Below, in pieces: positions 58,175 through 61,819 of a stretch of DNA of 64,000 bases. The first letter of the stretch is position 1, and every line of letters starts with the position of its first letter. The translations under genes and the position numbers were made by a program. The stretch is from a bacterium BMS3Bbin13 (GTDB taxonomy: Bacteria > Pseudomonadota > Gammaproteobacteria > 21-64-14). A model generated the notes under the pieces. The model saw only the letters and a list, made by a program, of their open reading frames with translations. It was not told where the DNA came from and did no database searches. Location: NCBI GenBank assembly GCA_002897735.1, contig BDTW01000021.1, positions 2,293-66,292 of the forward strand, in the 5' to 3' direction.

Positions 58175-58735
58175 TCAGTTGATCTCGGGCCGATTGATCT
58201 CGGGCCGATTGATCTCCGGCCGATTGATCTCCGGGCGGTTGATCTCGGGCCGGTTGATCTCCGGGCGCTCGATCTCCGGGCGGTTGATCTCGGGCCGGTT
58301 GACCTCCGGTCGGTTGGCCTCGGGGTGGCTGACCTCGGGACGGTTGACCTCGGGGTGGTTGACCTCGGGGTGGTTGACTTCGGGACGCTCGATTTCCGGC
58401 TTGCTCATCTCCGGCTTACCCATGTCCGGCTTACCCATGTCCGGCTTGCTCATCTCCAGCTTGCTCATGTCCGGCTTACCCATGTCCGGGGTTTCGACAT
58501 TGGGTCCCTTGGGCCTGTCGACTTTCGGACCGTCCGCGTGGTCCATGTTCAATCCTTCCCGCCGGTGCATGTCGGCCCGCGCGTTCGGGTTCCCCGGGGT
58601 GGCGGGGATGGCCGCCGCGGCCGGAGTCGCGGGGGTGGCGGGGGTGGCCGGGGTCGCGGCCAGCACGGGCAGCGCGACCAGGGCAAGCGCCGAGAAGCCC
58701 GGAATGAGAAGACGACGAATGTGCTTGCGGTTCAT
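58175..58735 (-). CDS. Secreted low-complexity protein with 21 tandem pentapeptides
   Basis: SD AAGGAGG, signal peptide ending PVLA, ATP repeats, then KPDMG/KPEMS/HPEVN/RPEIN repeats up to the stop codon. Confidence 0.88.
   Translation of the reverse strand: MNRKHIRRLLIPGFSALALVALPVLAATPATPATPATPAAAAIPATPGNPNARADMHRREGLNMDHADGPKVDRPKGPNVETPDMGKPDMSKLEMSKPDMGKPDMGKPEMSKPEIERPEVNHPEVNHPEVNRPEVSHPEANRPEVNRPEINRPEIERPEINRPEINRPEINRPEINRPEINRPEIN
58178..58492. repeat. 15-bp coding tandem repeat (21 units)
   Basis: Plus-strand GTTGATCTCGGGCCG-like units with synonymous variation. Confidence 0.93.
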
Positions 58736-58763
58736 GGCAGAAACCTCCTTCACAGGGAATGAA

Positions 58764-59531
58764 TCAGAATCGAATTTGTGCCCCGAGGCCGACTCCGTAG
58801 TCCGGACTGCCGTTGCTCAGCCCCAGGTCACCGAAGACCTGGAACCCCGTTCCGGGCCGCAGGTCGTAGTTCCAGGCGACGATCGCGTCCGAGGTCGCCG
58901 CGAACCCCGTTTGCTCCGACTGATAGCCGGAGTACATCACGGTAAAAAACTGGCCCCGGGCCACGCGCAGACTGCCGCCGGCCTCGTAGGTGATCACGTT
59001 GCGCAGATTGAGATTGGGAGGGGATCCGACTATGCGGTAACCCACCCGGGCGAAGGGAAACAGGCTCGTGCCGATGGTGGTACCGGCGCCCATGCCGAAC
59101 TCGTAGTCGTTCTCCCCGGTGCCGAGGCCCTTGCTCGAGGAGGCGGTCGCAAACTTGATCTTGGCGTAGGGGGTGAGATCGGGCATGCGCCCGTCCCCCC
59201 GCAGGGTGTACTTGCCCTCCAGCCACAGATCGCCCAGACCGCTACGGGTCTGGGACGAACCGCCGCCGGTCTTGCCCACCACGGTACCGCCGGAAACCAG
59301 TGCGCCGCTGCTCTTCACCGCGATGTACGGGACCGTGAGTTTGAGTTCGGCGTTGCCATCGCGGTACTTGATATAGGTAGGCACATACCAGATCTGGATG
59401 TTGCTCGTGGTGCCGAAACTCCCTTCGAAATAGGACGGCTGCACGCCGACCGTGGCGTGGGGCTGGGCCGCTTGGGCGGCACCGCCCGCGAGCAGCGCCG
59501 CCACCGCTGTGATCAGATACGCATGACGCAT
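58764..59531 (-). CDS. Outer-membrane beta-barrel (transporter-like)
   Basis: Signal peptide, alternating strands, SGLGDLWLEGKY, KFATA...GLGTGENDY, terminal GAQIRF. Confidence 0.8.
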   Translation of the reverse strand: MRHAYLITAVAALLAGGAAQAAQPHATVGVQPSYFEGSFGTTSNIQIWYVPTYIKYRDGNAELKLTVPYIAVKSSGALVSGGTVVGKTGGGSSQTRSGLGDLWLEGKYTLRGDGRMPDLTPYAKIKFATASSSKGLGTGENDYEFGMGAGTTIGTSLFPFARVGYRIVGSPPNLNLRNVITYEAGGSLRVARGQFFTVMYSGYQSEQTGFAATSDAIVAWNYDLRPGTGFQVFGDLGLSNGSPDYGVGLGAQIRF

Positions 59532-59615
59532 CGCTTTCTCCTCTTGAACTTCGCCCGAATCACCTGCCCCCAGCGCGCCGGCCCGTACCCCGGCGGCCCC
59601 TGAGAACCTTGTCTA

Positions 59616-59632
59616 GTGGGAACATTTCCCAC
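59616..59632. promoter_or_regulatory. Palindromic operator O1
   Basis: GTGGGAA-CAT-TTCCCAC, perfect 7-3-7 palindrome. Confidence 0.75.
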
Positions 59633-59653
59633 GCACCAAGTCGAGAATTCCCT

Positions 59654-59682
59654 TTGCGTTAAACCAAGTTTTGCATTACACT
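59654..59682 (+). promoter_or_regulatory. Rightward sigma70 promoter
   Basis: TTGCGT-17bp-TACACT. Confidence 0.65.
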
Positions 59683-59686
59683 GGCC

Positions 59687-59715
59687 ATGTTAGTGGGAAC
59701 TTCTCCCACTGTCAA
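59687..59715 (-). promoter_or_regulatory. Leftward sigma70 promoter with operator O2 as its spacer
   Basis: Minus strand TTGACA-GTGGGAGAAGTTCCCAC-TAACAT. Confidence 0.8.
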
Positions 59716-59729
59716 ATTCCAATCACGGA

Positions 59730-59751
59730 AATTGTGACCCGGTTCACGATT
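59730..59751. promoter_or_regulatory. CRP-like binding site
   Basis: AAT-TGTGA-CCCGGT-TCACG-ATT versus consensus TGTGA-N6-TCACA. Confidence 0.65.
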
Positions 59752-59769
59752 TCCGGATGGTGGAGATCC

Positions 59770-60597
59770 ATGCCGGATACCGCTCTGCAAACCGCCCTGG
59801 TGGAACTGCTGCGCCCCCTCGTGCGCTACTTGATCGGGCACGGCTGGGGCTACCCGGCTCTGTGCGACCTCCTCAAGGGCCTGTACGTGGCGGAAGCGGC
59901 GACGCTCGACCGCGCACCGGGGCGGGCGACCGACAGCCGCCTGAGCCTGCGCACCGGGATCCACCGGCGCGAGGTCAAACGATTGCGCAAAGAATGGGAA
60001 GGGGCAGCGACACTCCCGCTGCCCCGGCGCGATGCGAATCTCGCGTCGCGCGTCGTGGCGACCTGGGGCTCGGCGCCCGAGTATCTGGACGCGCACGGCG
60101 AGCCGCGGGTCCTCCCGTTGCGCGACGTCGGCGACGAGCCGGGTTTCGAGGCGCTGGTGCGACGGGTGAAGGCGGACGTACGGCCCCGCTCGGTGCTGGA
60201 CGAATTGGTGCGGGTCGGCGTGGCCGCGGAGACGCCCGAGGGCGCGCGCCTCCTGCGCACGGCCTACGTCTCCCCTCTGCCCGAAGAGAAGCTCGAGTTC
60301 CTGGCGGCCAACGTGGGGGATCACCTGCGCAGCGCCCTGCACAACCTGTCCCACCCGCAAGAGCCCTATCTGGAACGGGCCCTGTATCATGAGTCGATCC
60401 CCGCGGCCGATCTGGACCGCCTGCGCCCGGAACTGGTGCGTCTGGCCGAACCACTGCTGCGTGAGGCGAACCGGCGACTGCTGGACGCCGGTACGGTGGG
60501 AACCGAGACCCGTGCGACGCCGCGTCGGCGGATGCGCCTGGGGCTGTACTACTATGAGGAGGACACCGGTGGTGCACCATCGACCGAGAACACGTGA
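59770..60597 (+). CDS. DUF6502-like protein, probable HTH DNA-binding regulator
   Basis: LLRPLVRYLI...TDSRLSLRTGIHRREVKRL, FEALV...DVRPRSVLDEL, DHL...LHNL...YLER, RMRLGLYYY; family recognised from memory. Confidence 0.8.
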   Translation: MPDTALQTALVELLRPLVRYLIGHGWGYPALCDLLKGLYVAEAATLDRAPGRATDSRLSLRTGIHRREVKRLRKEWEGAATLPLPRRDANLASRVVATWGSAPEYLDAHGEPRVLPLRDVGDEPGFEALVRRVKADVRPRSVLDELVRVGVAAETPEGARLLRTAYVSPLPEEKLEFLAANVGDHLRSALHNLSHPQEPYLERALYHESIPAADLDRLRPELVRLAEPLLREANRRLLDAGTVGTETRATPRRRMRLGLYYYEEDTGGAPSTENT

Positions 60598-61819
60598 ACG
60601 ATGCCCGCTGTGGGCGCGGCGCGCGCGGGCCTCCACCCCGTTGCGCACTCTGCTGCTCGGACTGCTGCTCACGCTGGCGGCGGGACCCATCTCCATGGGC
60701 GCGACCGACGGCGGCGGGATCGGCGGCACCGGCATCACCGGCTTCGGGCCCATCCAGGGCTTCGGCAGCATCTTCGTCAACGCCCGAGAGTATTTTCTGC
60801 GCGCCGATACGCGGATCACGGTCGACGGCCGGGCCGCGGGGCGCAGGGCGTTGCACGTGGGCGATATGGTGGTGGTACGCGGCACGGCGGACCCGGCGCG
60901 TACCACCGGATGGGCGGATGTCGTACAGGTACGCCACCCGCTGGTGGGACGGGTCGATGCGGTGTCGGCGGGTGGTGCGCACCTGACGGTACTGGGTCAG
61001 GGGGTGCGCATCCCGGCCGGTGTACCCGTCGTGGGTGGTGACGGACACACCGTCGCGCTACACGCCGGCGACTGGGTGGCGGTGAGCGCACTGGCGAACG
61101 CGCGCGACGAGTGGATCGCCACGCGCGTGGCGCTGCGCTACCCCGCGGGCTCCGTCCCCGCGGGGGTCCCGGCGGTGATCGAGGGACGGGTCGCGAGCGT
61201 TGGACCGAACGGCGTGCTGCGCATCGGCACCCAGGCGGTCCGTCTCGAAGGAGCCGCCGCGCACAAGTCCGCGCCCGCACCCGGCGCGCGGATCCGCGTG
61301 GTGGGTCGCTATCGGGACGGCGTGATCCTCGCAAGCCGGCTCGCGCCGGCGCGGCCGGCGCTGGGCGGCCCGGGCCGCTATGTCGAGATGGAAGGCTACG
61401 CGGTGCCGCGCGCCGCCGGCGGGCTGCACAGCAACGGGATCCTGCTGCGCCCGCCCGGCGGCAAAGAGGGCGCCGGGCCGACCGGAATCCGGGCCGACCG
61501 GGCGTTGGTGTTCACCGGCAGGATCGGGCCGGACGGGTCGTTGGAGATCGAACGCATGGAACCCCCGCATGCGCCGGAGTTGCCGCACGCAGGTGCGGGC
61601 GGCGGTGAAAGGGGGTTCGGGGGACATGGGACACACGGGATCGAACGCCCGGAACTCGAGCGACCCCGAATCGAGCGCCCGGAACTCGAGCAGCCCCGGA
61701 TCGAGCGCCCGGAGATCGGACGACCCCGGATCGAACGTCCGGAGATCGTGCGACCCGAGATAGAAATACCGCAGGCCCAGCGTCCGGAGATCCCGGAAGT
61801 GGAGATGCCGGGTCACTGA
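60569..61819 (+). CDS. DUF5666-like exported protein with C-terminal RPE(I/L)E repeats
   Basis: SD GAGGAGG plus GTG at 60569, hydrophobic N-terminal segment, GGIGGTG...GPIQGFGSIFVN, repeated small beta domains, about 10 pentapeptides at the tail. Confidence 0.8.
   Translation: MVHHRPRTRERCPLWARRARASTPLRTLLLGLLLTLAAGPISMGATDGGGIGGTGITGFGPIQGFGSIFVNAREYFLRADTRITVDGRAAGRRALHVGDMVVVRGTADPARTTGWADVVQVRHPLVGRVDAVSAGGAHLTVLGQGVRIPAGVPVVGGDGHTVALHAGDWVAVSALANARDEWIATRVALRYPAGSVPAGVPAVIEGRVASVGPNGVLRIGTQAVRLEGAAAHKSAPAPGARIRVVGRYRDGVILASRLAPARPALGGPGRYVEMEGYAVPRAAGGLHSNGILLRPPGGKEGAGPTGIRADRALVFTGRIGPDGSLEIERMEPPHAPELPHAGAGGGERGFGGHGTHGIERPELERPRIERPELEQPRIERPEIGRPRIERPEIVRPEIEIPQAQRPEIPEVEMPGH

Follow-up and report, generated by a model that had tools for sequence, protein, structure and literature searches.

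The closest described counterparts of the locus considered here are 12-stranded channels of the outer membrane. FapF (PDB 5o65), which belongs to the secretion of functional amyloid in Pseudomonas with FapC, FapB and FapE as substrates, has a plug helix (residues 89-101) and a turn (FF102-103), and it depends on a coiled coil, on the plug and on the FapD protease (PMC5557850). Among the COG4313 or Phenol_MetA_deg channels, such as Pput2725 (PDB 4rl8), TcpY and SphA, the 14 N-terminal residues of Pput2725 are needed to occlude a pore of 10-12 Å (PMC4493636).

The window, i.e. the whole 64,000-nucleotide stretch of DNA that was analysed, contains four genes that form a conserved and apparently co-regulated cassette; they encode a small secreted protein, a FapF-like barrel, a DUF6502 protein and a DUF5666 protein (Table 1). 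The first and the last of these end in pentapeptide arrays. No description of such a two-tail cassette was found in print.

Organization of the cassette

Table 1. Position and basis of the cassette features in the window
Feature	Positions	Strand	Basis or location
Small secreted tail protein, 186 aa	58175-58735	minus	ORF and RBS
Array of exactly 21 five-residue units	58178-58492	minus	C-terminal end of small protein
12-stranded β-barrel of FapF/COG4313 fold, 255 aa, C-terminal F, no N-terminal plug	58764-59531	minus	AlphaFold2, pLDDT 92.6
17-bp palindrome GTGGGAA-N3-TTCCCAC	59616-59632	no strand	
Predicted sigma-70-like promoter TTGACA-17-TAACAT, upstream of barrel and small-protein genes	59687-59715	minus	consensus match only
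Second palindrome copy, 1 mismatch, abutting the -35 hexamer of the barrel promoter	59693-59709	no strand	
DUF6502 protein, cytoplasmic, with helix-turn-helix-like TDSRLSLRTGIHRREVKRLR segment	59770-60597	plus	PF20112, 88.4 bits (cut-off 27)
Exported DUF5666 protein, 416 aa	60569-61819	plus	PF18914, 50.9 bits
Array of 10 pentapeptide units, then EVEMPGH and stop codon	61646-61795	plus	C-terminal end of DUF5666 protein

The barrel gene sits between the genes for the two tail-bearing proteins, and in 76 of 80 related loci the DUF6502 gene immediately precedes the DUF5666 gene. The DUF6502 protein, a putative DNA-binding protein, probably regulates the cassette, with the palindrome at 59616-59632 as its probable operator. 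Allowing up to two mismatches, 47 of 76 loci have this motif close to the DUF6502 start, and the 2.69-Mb genome contains just 5 copies. Otherwise found upstream of DUF6502 genes, it also precedes separate barrel genes in five Thiomonas-type loci and a separately placed small-protein gene in L037. The sigma-70-like promoter is the single one found, against 0.4 expected.

The outer-membrane barrel

FapF provides the top Foldseek matches of the barrel model (E 1.6e-9), and superposition by VIA-align on FapF (5o65_C) gives a Z of 24.0 and an rmsd of 2.2 Å over 214 residues (model 25-255 on FapF 107-406). The corresponding Z is 22.5 for Pput2725, 16-19 for type Va and inverse autotransporter β-domains (EspP, NalP, BrkA, intimin) and 13.9, far below FapF, for PcoB. 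FapF is also found by the barrel family profile among PDB sequences (E 2.6e-4). The alignment begins beyond the FapF plug helix and FF turn; in the model the first strand starts three residues past the predicted signal cleavage. The mature barrel has about 234 aa, against 270-320 for the COG4313/Phenol_MetA_deg family; PF13557 does not match it even at E up to 10 and gives weak, sub-threshold scores with two of its relatives (19.8 and 18.1 bits; cut-off 22).

The two pentapeptide tails

The small protein starts with an ATG at 58735 preceded by AAGGAGG, and a signal-peptide-like N-terminus is followed by a Thr/Pro/Ala-rich segment (PATPATPATPA...PGNP) and by the array. The units read TPDMG KPDMS KLEMS KPDMG KPDMG KPEMS KPEIE and then RPEVN HPEVN HPEVN RPEVS HPEAN RPEVN RPEIN RPEIE RPEIN, the last present in six consecutive copies; they thus grade from KPDMG/KPEMS through HPEVN to RPEIN, with proline at position 2 in 20 of 21. 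Tandem Repeats Finder reports arrays of period 15, 30 or 45 at 58178-58400 and 58395-58489. No Pfam or NCBIfam family scores above its cut-off in this protein, Extensin_1 reaching 53 bits against a cut-off of 105. Since its counterparts across related loci show almost no conservation outside the tail, the tail is what selection keeps in the small protein.

The DUF5666 protein consists of a signal peptide, a GGIGGTGI motif, about 280 aa of tandem small OB-like β-barrels and a predicted disordered tail. In the AlphaFold2 model the core (residues 55-335) has a pLDDT above 90 for the most part and gives weak Foldseek matches to S1/CSD/OB proteins; the tail (residues 339-416) is devoid of secondary structure, with pLDDT 29-53, in agreement with the earlier suggestion that these repeats favour an extended chain over amyloid. 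Its units are RPELE RPRIE RPELE QPRIE RPEIG RPRIE RPEIV RPEIE IPQAQ RPEIP. The array, detected by Tandem Repeats Finder at 61638-61758, differs from that of the closest relative by single-unit (15-nt) indels and is bridged without gaps by contigs from four metagenome runs.

The first-pass annotation had noticed that the same type of repeat ends two exported proteins of one module, and the 21 and 10 units confirm it. Its further statement that both carry the same code holds for R-P-E-[IVL]-x, which is common to the two arrays, but not for position 5, where the small protein has mostly N and the DUF5666 protein E; the latter also alternates RPE with RPR. The synonymous codon variation it described is real: seven RPEIN units are written as five distinct 15-mers, and two RPEVN units as two. 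The longest DNA string common to the arrays is 19 nt, therefore no long gene-conversion tract lies behind their likeness in flavour.

The pair of arrays is more than chance would give. Of 12 matches from a regex scan of the 2.69-Mb assembly in all six frames, the two window arrays alone are of [RKH]P[ED] type in real frames; among 3024 stop-to-stop frames of at least 300 aa, 150 have at least 4 in-phase prolines near the C-terminus, 12 have at least 6, and 10 are reached by the DUF5666 protein alone. The same genome encodes cytoplasmic proteins that end in pentapeptide arrays of other motifs (SPEDE x9 in a ScpB-like protein, QAPVE/VATDQ in RpoC, GEEVT in a FimV-like protein), thus 15-nt slippage is common in it.

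Distribution and co-variation of the tails

A search for such repeats near DUF5666 genes, as had been proposed, found them well beyond the window, contrary to the absence from homologous loci that was to refute the earlier view. On the DUF5666 protein, a period-5 proline tail, counted from at least 4 in-phase C-terminal prolines, occurs in 46 of 80 related loci; 26 of 80 encode a small partner with signal peptide and period-5 tail, 21 of these 26 having a barrel as well. By the same count, the control proteins of these loci are nearly free of tails (0/45 barrels, 1/76 DUF6502 proteins). Arrays of xP[ED][IV]x type end 16 of 18 fetched DUF5666 homologues, and a tail is present in 60 of the 98 proteins of up to 650 aa among the best 150 of 12101 profile matches. 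The position of the tail is C-terminal in every case. The loci that keep it carry titles from alpha-, beta- and gammaproteobacterial genera as well as Thermithiobacillus; proline is retained at position 2, and I, V, L or M fills position 4 in 95% of the units of the small protein (n=247) and in 81% of those of the DUF5666 protein (n=121).

The flavours of the tails include RPEIE, TPEVS, TPSVN and RPHID, and the tails of the two proteins match more closely within a locus than between loci. With ten clusters at 60% DUF6502 identity, this clustering being the sole correction for relatedness, the observed match was reached by 25 of 100000 permutations (dot product) or 1 of 100000 (BLOSUM); with the eight charged clusters alone, the figures were 532 and 48 of 40320. 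At a 50% threshold all loci collapse into two clusters, too few for such permutations. The co-variation is uneven: as partner of its own small protein, the DUF5666 tail of the window cluster ranks only 4th of 9, and those of L029 and L050 rank 8th and 6th. Conservation and co-variation together support the earlier view that the repeat is selected at the protein level for a common function.

Starting from the barrel, a set of 400 genomes of the class yielded 29 barrel-centred loci, located in 28 of the genomes. A directly adjacent, same-strand signal-peptide protein with at least 4 P[ED] in its last 60 aa was present in 12 of 29, against a background of 15 in 471 frames of at least 100 aa; with five more loci read by eye, an [RK]PE-rich tail neighbour is found in 17 of 29. 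Two barrel and tail pairs (L087, L111) have neither DUF6502 nor DUF5666 genes within 1.5 kb on each side. The tail period beside related barrels is 3, 5 or 6 residues, thus period 5 itself is not what the barrel would read. Charged residues facing the lumen, at positions inferred from strand parity, correlate with charged tails (Spearman 0.79, n=33), but net charge of lumen and tail do not track each other (rho -0.05), and a link between barrel charge and tail charge is not established, since it comes down to one or two phylogenetically independent contrasts.

Possible role of the tails

Because the tails are kept, co-vary and usually lie beside a barrel, they are probably what the FapF-like pore handles. 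Our preferred reading, to which we give a probability of roughly 0.4, is that they are disordered and either dock in this barrel or run through it. The earlier idea of a docking or export signal gains indirect support, as a plug-less FapF-like barrel lies between the two genes and is tied to tails in other genomes; contact, threading, export and gating are what we infer from these associations. The decoy suggested along with it, which would draw a partner off a sensor tail, supposes a sensor role of the DUF5666 protein for which no sign emerged. The two tails would engage the cassette's own channel, a minimal 12-stranded barrel. With a proline in each unit of five, a branched hydrophobic residue two places after it and polar or charged residues elsewhere, the chain would stay unfolded, unable to form helix or amyloid and thin enough for a pore of about 10-12 Å. 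The small protein, little more than signal peptide and tail, could be a dedicated cargo or a string, threaded through the barrel or exported by it much as FapF exports unfolded Fap subunits, and the tandem OB-like core of the DUF5666 protein, too folded for the pore, would dock on the periplasmic face of the barrel through its like tail. We propose that the tails change flavour in step (charged RPEIE, acidic TPEVE, neutral TPSVN) because both fit one pore.

Several observations count against the barrel as the common partner. By the adjacency rule above, 17 of 29 barrel-centred loci have no tail neighbour; in 18 loci a barrel and a tailed DUF5666 protein occur without the small protein; tails are present in 9 of 35 loci without a barrel in reach, and two of these nine, L019 and L042, encode both tailed proteins with no barrel within about 4-6 kb, on contigs that continue there. 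The window cassette has no FapF-type coiled coil, plug or FapD protease, which speaks against FapF-like export, and the COG4313 relatives are regarded as uptake channels for small hydrophobic molecules rather than for peptides (PMC4493636).

Metal handling would make the tails periplasmic or surface ligand arrays, in which Met, His, Asp and Glu buffer or pass on Cu(I)/Ag(I), Cu(II), Fe or similar ions as a disordered sponge of the SilE/PcoE type, the barrel being the route across the outer membrane; it could be combined with threading. In the window small protein, Met is gathered in one block of units (KPDMG, KPDMS, KLEMS, KPEMS) and His in another (HPEVN, HPEAN), and partners rich in Met, His or Asp are found in L014 (HHDMD/RADVD), in L029 and L030 (RPEMT, with RPMIE/RPMMD in the DUF5666 protein), in L044 and in L050 (RPHID), as are Met/Pro-rich versions of both proteins in L033 and Met-rich secreted proteins adjoining related barrels in L098 and L109. 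Carriers often come from metal-rich settings, with titles naming Acidiphilium, Acidocella, Thiomonas, Acidiferrobacterales and Gallionellaceae; DNA of the host organism is present in runs labelled hydrothermal-vent and marine metagenomes, and DUF5666 is listed among pH-adaptation features (PMC13255231). PcoB is among the structural matches of the barrel, but a far poorer one than FapF; the Pfam scan of the four proteins found no metal-binding family, and most window units are RPEIN or RPEVN, without soft-metal ligands. Throughout the Thiomonas-type clade the tails are neutral (TPSVN/VPSVQ), Met, His, Asp and Glu being confined to their extreme C-terminus. The binding of Cu or Ag by the Met/His block, suggested at first, is thus excluded as a general function by whole clades without metal ligands; metal handling as such, although the leading rival to the preferred reading, is rather unlikely. 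A shade less probable is that the tails are non-specific spacers or bristles, i.e. slippage-prone disordered extensions for solubility or envelope spacing, alike through mutational bias, codon usage and compartment chemistry with no common partner. The arrays on unrelated cytoplasmic proteins, the gain and loss of single units, the wide variation of period and composition between lineages and the few contrasts behind the charge link would fit this view; the constant C-terminal place across so many genera, the residues kept at positions 2 and 4, the synonymous differences among identical units, the tail-free control proteins, the small protein in which little else is conserved and the adjacency recovered from the barrel side do not.

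Direct contact between the two proteins would also account for their co-variation, if the tails bound each other or polymerised, e.g. as paired polyproline-II-like strands, into a periplasmic or extracellular mesh. Besides the flavour match, the presence of both proteins in one cassette, probably one regulon, and the similar C-terminal ends in some loci (TPTVPYM and APNVPQM in L037) agree with it; yet small protein and barrel pair with no DUF5666 gene within 1.5 kb in L087 and L111, the 18 loci mentioned above lack the small protein, AlphaFold2 gives the DUF5666 tail no structure, and a proline in every unit of five is unfavourable to regular sheets and helices, so that we regard such assembly as quite improbable. 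Least credible by far is a right-handed quadrilateral β-helix as in A(D/N)LXX pentapeptide-repeat proteins, P-E-I-N-R presumably mapping onto positions i-2 to i+2 of that consensus. Period 5, the hydrophobic residue at the centre and the small one two positions before it would suit such a fold, but proline at i-2 is not typical of these proteins, ten units would make only 2.5 coils, the modelled DUF5666 tail is low in confidence and has no strands, and no pentapeptide-repeat family was found by Pfam scan of both tail proteins at E up to 0.01.

Comparison with known systems

With the Fap system, the window shares the 12-stranded fold, a detectable sequence similarity and a barrel gene next to genes for Sec-exported proteins that bear repeats and would have no fold in the periplasm. 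Unlike FapF, the window barrel has no N-terminal coiled coil or helical plug; no FapD-type peptidase is found among the four cassette genes, a probable DUF6502 regulator and a tandem-OB DUF5666 protein standing in place of FapA and FapD, and the candidate cargo, with proline at every fifth residue, could not form cross-β amyloid. COG4313 channels are likewise 12-stranded, and in SphR-SphA the channel gene adjoins a dedicated regulator, as it probably does in the window; however, the window barrel lacks the 14 lumen-filling N-terminal residues of Pput2725, and the known members are tied to small hydrophobic molecules and not to tail proteins. The autotransporter β-domains, similar in shape, offer the geometry proposed for the window tails, as a segment in the lumen links periplasmic and surface parts; there, segment and barrel are one chain, whereas in the window they would be separate proteins, and no passenger domain is present.

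SilE/PcoE sponges are small, Sec-exported, intrinsically disordered and partly Met/His-rich, like the window small protein. Yet they fold into helices on metal binding, which proline at every fifth residue forbids, and many tails of the cassette family are without metal ligands. The periplasmic spacers of TonB-type proteins are charged Pro-Glu/Pro-Lys(Arg) segments of low complexity, expected to be extended like the window tails; they have period 2, in proteins with an inner-membrane anchor and a folded end domain, whereas the window repeat, of period 5, forms the free C-terminus of exported proteins that are soluble.

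Organization of the cassette and of its repeat arrays

The 3.7 kb between lysA and dapF contain four genes, coding for a small secreted tail protein, a 255-aa protein and two proteins with DUF6502 and DUF5666 domains, respectively. The whole gene run, at 52857-63471, reads cyaA, esterase, lysA, the cassette, dapF, an unscanned ORF and an ORF that by eye is xerC-like. DUF6502 was found in 17 of 61 related genomes, thus the cassette is patchy. In Pfam, the DUF5666 model (PF18914) matches residues 187-247 of the 476-aa frame with 50.9 bits (cut-off 27), this being the single DUF5666 locus of the genome, while the DUF6502 model (PF20112) scores 88.4 bits (cut-off 27) and is matched by all 40 aligned relatives.

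Features of the cassette and its surroundings, in window positions
Feature	Position	Strand	Remarks
lysA	56880-58127	plus
Inverted repeat GAAGGGAGGGCG...CGCCCTCCCCC	58131-58164		GC-rich, recognized by eye where the small-protein gene and lysA converge; not among the sites listed by the terminator scan
Small tail protein	58175-58735	minus	186 aa; 28 nt downstream of the gene for the 255-aa protein
Array of the small protein	58178-58492		21 units
255-aa protein (barrel)	58764-59531	minus	No match in Pfam and NCBIfam
Palindrome GTGGGAA-N3-TTCCCAC	59616-59632		17 bp; divergent intergenic region
Palindrome, second copy	59693-59709		Immediately next to the -35 hexamer of the barrel operon's promoter-like site
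Inverted repeat CGGAAATTGTGACCC/GGTTCACGATTTCCG	59726-59755		Just before the DUF6502 start codon; perfect spacing, 15-nt arms, 87% complementary
DUF6502 protein	59770-60597	plus	Divergent from the minus-strand pair; overlaps the DUF5666 gene
DUF5666 protein	60569-61819	plus	Overlaps the DUF6502 gene
Motif GGIGGTGI-x-GFG-x-IQ-x-FGSIFVNG	60710-60760		After the signal peptide of the DUF5666 protein; nearly invariant among homologues
Array of the DUF5666 protein	61646-61795		10 units, then EVEMPGH
dapF	61949-62773	plus

The small protein starts with a signal-peptide-like segment, followed by a PATPATPA...PGNP stretch and by its array of five-residue units, nearly all with proline in second position; the DUF5666 protein ends with an array of the same kind. 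Both arrays were found by Tandem Repeats Finder, and the unit counts, unit types and coordinates proposed for them in the first-pass annotation were right, as was the synonymous codon variation it described: the seven RPEIN units are encoded by five different 15-mers. Its claim that the two proteins carry the same code holds for the R-P-E-[IVL]-x pattern, which is common to both window arrays, but the units are not identical. When the 2.69-Mb assembly was scanned in six frames, the regex matched 12 times, and of these matches the two arrays alone are of [RKH]P[ED] type and in a real frame; 10 in-phase prolines near the end occur only in the DUF5666 protein among 3024 long frames.

Other C-terminal pentapeptide arrays are present in the genome, namely SPEDE x9 in a ScpB-like protein (C24:66808-66945), GEEVT repeats in a FimV-like protein (C25:98601-98690) and QAPVE/VATDQ repeats in RpoC (C29:12628-12702), all named by eye; thus, tandem repeats of 15 nt seem to arise readily in this genome. 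For the window, gene conversion from one inverted array to the other was considered and rejected: the longest string they have in common is 19 nt, therefore long-tract conversion is not the cause here. Compared with the closest relative, the DUF5666 array differs by two indels, each of exactly 15 nt. This array is bridged without gaps by contigs of four metagenome runs from two studies; the short-read assemblies of all four runs break inside the small-protein array, at 58246-58470. In one metagenome variant (run X6) an in-frame 9-nt deletion is found in the PATPATPA-coding stretch, at 58629. The 23 sequencing runs listed for this DNA include none of RNA.

Distribution of the tails among related loci

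Of 29 proteins retrieved by homology to the DUF5666 protein, 18 were fetched; xP[ED][IV]x arrays end 16 of these 18, the two homologues without being P0023 and P0026. A pattern scan with one genome per species gave 139 relatives, and 80 loci were kept. Culturable carriers are named in the titles of these loci, among them Thermithiobacillus tepidarius DSM 3134, Parvibaculum sedimenti HXT-9 and strains of Thiomonas, Acidiphilium or Acidocella. DUF6502 lies directly upstream of DUF5666 in 76 of the 80 loci, and a homologue of the 255-aa barrel is within reach in 45. At least four in-phase C-terminal prolines are found on the DUF5666 protein in 46 loci, that is 37/45 with the barrel and 9/35 without it; on control proteins the tail detector, at this threshold, fires on 0/45 barrels and 1/76 DUF6502 proteins, and the threshold is soft because 150 of the 3024 long frames of this GC-rich genome pass it. 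In 26/80 loci there is a small protein that has both a signal peptide and a period-5 tail; these proteins are otherwise little alike beyond the signal peptide, often a NAATPAVPG...ATPAMPGNP motif, and the tail. The homology search with the small protein was defeated by low complexity, with one match (E 2.1e-4) among 8000 candidates, and the protein atlas gave for it only unnamed clusters with scores of 0.80 or less. Over the whole set of tails, the fourth residue is I, V, L or M in 95% of the 247 units from small proteins and in 81% of the 121 from DUF5666 proteins. With a profile of the DUF5666 core alone, 12101 cluster representatives were matched, of which 2806 had an E of 1e-30 or better; in the 150 top matches, the tail was found on 60 of 98 proteins of up to 650 aa and on 2 of 52 longer ones. 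In a groundwater MAG (locus L036) a single in-frame stop splits the DUF5666 frame (5254-6966) from the pentapeptide tail (6967-7131); a pseudogene, read-through or an error in the sequence may account for it.

The barrel profile was also run against 400 genomes of the class and was present in 28 of them, giving 29 loci that were taken with 1.5 kb on each side. A strict rule, which asks for a directly adjacent gene on the same strand coding for a signal-peptide protein with at least four P[ED] dipeptides in the last 60 residues, selected a neighbour in 12 of the 29 loci, with a background of 15 in 471 frames of at least 100 aa; five further tail neighbours (L089, L093, L094, L097, L102) were recognized by eye. 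The repeat period beside the barrels varies: KPE x8 (L090), RPELME x9 (L091) and RPER-type repeats (L089, L101) are found, together with pentapeptides (L085-L087, L094, L111). One genome (G366) carries three barrel copies, and L087 and L111 are two pairs of small tail protein and barrel, within 1.5 kb of which DUF6502 and DUF5666 were not found. Thus, the most constant companion of tail-only proteins is the barrel, not the DUF5666 protein; the common property is an unfolded C-terminus rich in proline and charge, not a period of five. Some related barrels are adjoined, in place of Pro-rich tails, by secreted low-complexity proteins that are Met-rich (L098, 2459-2968; L109, 2135-2569) or Asp/Arg-rich (L096, 2594-2953).

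Co-variation of the two tails, and charge of the barrel

The unit type of the tails, or flavour, varies among lineages and tends to match inside one locus. The group of the window is of RPEIE type; both proteins have TPEVS/TPDVS units in Parvibaculum sedimenti (L024), RPEIQ in Thermithiobacillus (L043), KPEVE in L036 and VPSIQ in L037; RPHID is found beside RPHIM/RPHVV in L050, and Thiomonas-type loci have neutral TPSVN/VPSVQ beside PPSVS/TPSVT. For shuffling the pairing, each cluster at 60% DUF6502 identity was represented by one locus; this clustering corrects only crudely for relatedness, and at 50% identity the clusters collapse. With nine clusters the observed similarity was reached in 301 (dot product) and 29 (BLOSUM) of 200000 shuffles, with ten clusters in 25 and 1, respectively, of 100000; for the eight charged clusters alone, exhaustive permutation gave 532 and 48 of 40320. 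The signal is uneven, the window's own pair ranking 4th of 9, L050 6th and L029 8th.

As regards charge, 22-25 charged residues are counted in barrels whose partner tails are neutral, except for L033 with 31, and 27-47 in barrels paired with charged tails, all of the latter but L011 having at least 32. The raw barrel-tail charge correlation has a rho of 0.59; when only lumen positions, assigned by strand parity, are compared with tail charge content, the correlation is 0.79 (n=33). Between the net charges of lumen and tail there is no such correlation (-0.05), and the strong positive net charge of Acidiphilium/Acidocella-type barrels sits outside lumen positions. On the DUF6502 tree the charge trait changes only once or twice, which leaves one or two independent contrasts, so that an independent-pairs test cannot reach significance; barrel-tail charge complementarity was rejected, since the raw correlations fail this test and describe a clade-level pattern only.

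Predicted structure of the proteins and the probable shared operator

A profile of 33 homologues of the 255-aa protein, compared with PDB sequences, matched only FapF, the amyloid exporter of Pseudomonas (E 2.6e-4). The AlphaFold2 model is confident (pLDDT 92.6) and its top Foldseek matches are the FapF entries 5o67, 5o65 and 5o68 (E 1.6e-9); VIA-align gave for FapF a Z of 24.0, with an rmsd of 2.2 A over 214 residues, followed by the COG4313 channel Pput2725 (Z 22.5), KdgM/NanC porins (Z about 20-21) and autotransporter beta-domains (Z 17-19). The window barrel matched 0 families at E up to 10, PF13557 (Phenol_MetA_deg/COG4313) thus included; for this family the L024 and L043 barrels score 19.8 and 18.1 bits (cut-off 22). 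The first strand of the model starts from residue 25, after a 21-residue signal peptide, and residues 25-255 align with 107-406 of FapF (start at about 104-107). The structural description of FapF in PMC5557850 assigns a helical plug to residues 89-101 and a turn to FF102-103, and includes a periplasmic trimeric coiled coil. Differently from FapF, the window barrel lacks coiled coil and plug, the aligned part beginning past all of these; the protein is thus a minimal 12-stranded barrel of the FapF/COG4313 superfamily, apparently plug-less.

In a high-confidence AlphaFold2 model, the core of the DUF5666 protein, residues 55-335, forms a row of small beta-barrels with weak Foldseek matches to S1, cold-shock and OB-fold proteins, and the tail (339-416) is predicted without secondary structure, at pLDDT 29-53. 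In some homologues the GGIGGTG part of the conserved motif is repeated up to about five times.

The intergenic palindrome, with up to two mismatches, is found near the DUF6502 start in 47/76 loci and has five occurrences in the whole genome; it also precedes barrel genes that lie apart from DUF6502 (L021, L038, L041, L049, L051) and a separated small-protein gene (L037). This distribution fits DUF6502 as a candidate DNA-binding regulator of the cassette. The DUF6502 profile gave nothing below E 0.048 among PDB sequences, and helix-turn-helix families gave scattered matches (E 0.018-0.17) in one or two of 40 members.

Possible roles of the tails

The most economical explanation, to which a probability of about 40% is given, is that the tails are segments engaging the barrel pore. 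It draws on gene linkage seen from both sides, co-variation, the barrel fold with its missing plug, predicted disorder and the shared operator. The small protein would be the cargo, or a threaded string, of the barrel, and the DUF5666 protein a periplasmic partner docked via the same kind of tail. Against pore engagement there are tails with no barrel nearby, as in L019 and L042, whose contigs are not truncated there (in L019 a membrane-transporter-like gene, TehA-like by eye, is at the barrel's expected place), 18 loci in which the small protein is missing beside a barrel and a tailed DUF5666 protein, the absence of the accessory parts required by FapF, and the small-molecule uptake role attributed to known COG4313 relatives in PMC4493636. 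A complex prediction for barrel (22-255, 33-row alignment) and small protein (27-186, 14-row alignment), run without controls, scored 0.02 and 0.01, the mark being 0.32, and speaks neither in favour of binding nor against it. In a more elaborate and rather improbable form, a "string and stopper", both disordered tails would share one plug-less pore and co-evolve. The tail-only protein would be threaded through this pore and stand on the cell surface as a hair or ligand array of polyampholyte, non-amyloid nature; its place in the lumen would be contested by the tail of the tandem-OB DUF5666 protein, which would gate the pore from the periplasm; and DUF6502, as repressor, would balance the amounts of the two tail proteins. 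If true, such a device would add to the outer-membrane systems a new class that conducts polypeptides, of FapF/COG4313 descent, in several proteobacterial classes.

Other explanations were weighed as well. Metal handling by the Met, His and acidic units is attractive for this window but not general, and is considered unlikely; no SilE/PcoE-type family is among the Pfam matches of the small protein, a negative that holds as far as Pfam models cover these sponges. That the tails are a non-specific spacer, shaped by slippage and compartment chemistry, agrees with the frequent 15-nt slippage in this genome and is held to be quite unlikely; assembly of the proteins tail to tail is very unlikely. 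A quadrilateral beta-helix of the pentapeptide-repeat type, A(D/N)LXX, is extremely improbable, since the only Pfam match at E up to 0.01 was Extensin_1, which stays under its cut-off, and the DUF5666 tail was modelled without strands (pLDDT 29-53). The match to this plant extensin-like repeat (PF02095, cut-off 105 bits), which scores 53 bits in the small protein and 21.9 in the DUF5666 protein, is a low-complexity resemblance only.

In the open-access literature searched no paper was found on DUF6502, five tail repeat strings gave no match, and DUF5666, in the text retrieved, appears only in gene or feature lists. Pore engagement, if true, would give the first functional context for DUF5666 (12101 cluster representatives) and DUF6502, and a simple testable rule for acceptance by a narrow pore, namely xP-polar-[IV]-polar repeats; the three-partner co-variation of two tails and barrel would be a natural data set on the co-evolution of disordered segments and channels. 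Together with its own probable regulator, the barrel occurs in many proteobacteria associated with sulfur, iron and acid; if a stripped-down FapF relative handles proline-periodic disordered proteins, passive conduction of polypeptides by small 12-stranded barrels would prove more widespread than assumed.

Comparison with known systems

In Pput2725 the first 14 residues fill a pore that is otherwise 10-12 A wide, and the mature length given for the COG4313 family is 270-320 aa (structural account in PMC4493636). The mature window barrel is shorter, about 234 aa, and residue 22 of its model aligns to residue 12 of Pput2725, a lumen-filling N-terminal segment being absent. The model is that of a FapF-type 12-stranded outer-membrane barrel. 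Within this barrel family, to our knowledge, movement of polypeptides has so far been demonstrated for FapF alone, and there solely for the amyloid system of Pseudomonas and relatives. The Fap operon has a C39-type peptidase, FapD, whereas a peptidase family match is absent among the four genes of the cassette; the Fap amyloid subunits have Q/N-rich repeats, whereas those of the cassette have proline at every fifth residue. The barrel belongs to a known superfamily, and the action proposed for it would be a variant of FapF-type polypeptide conduction.
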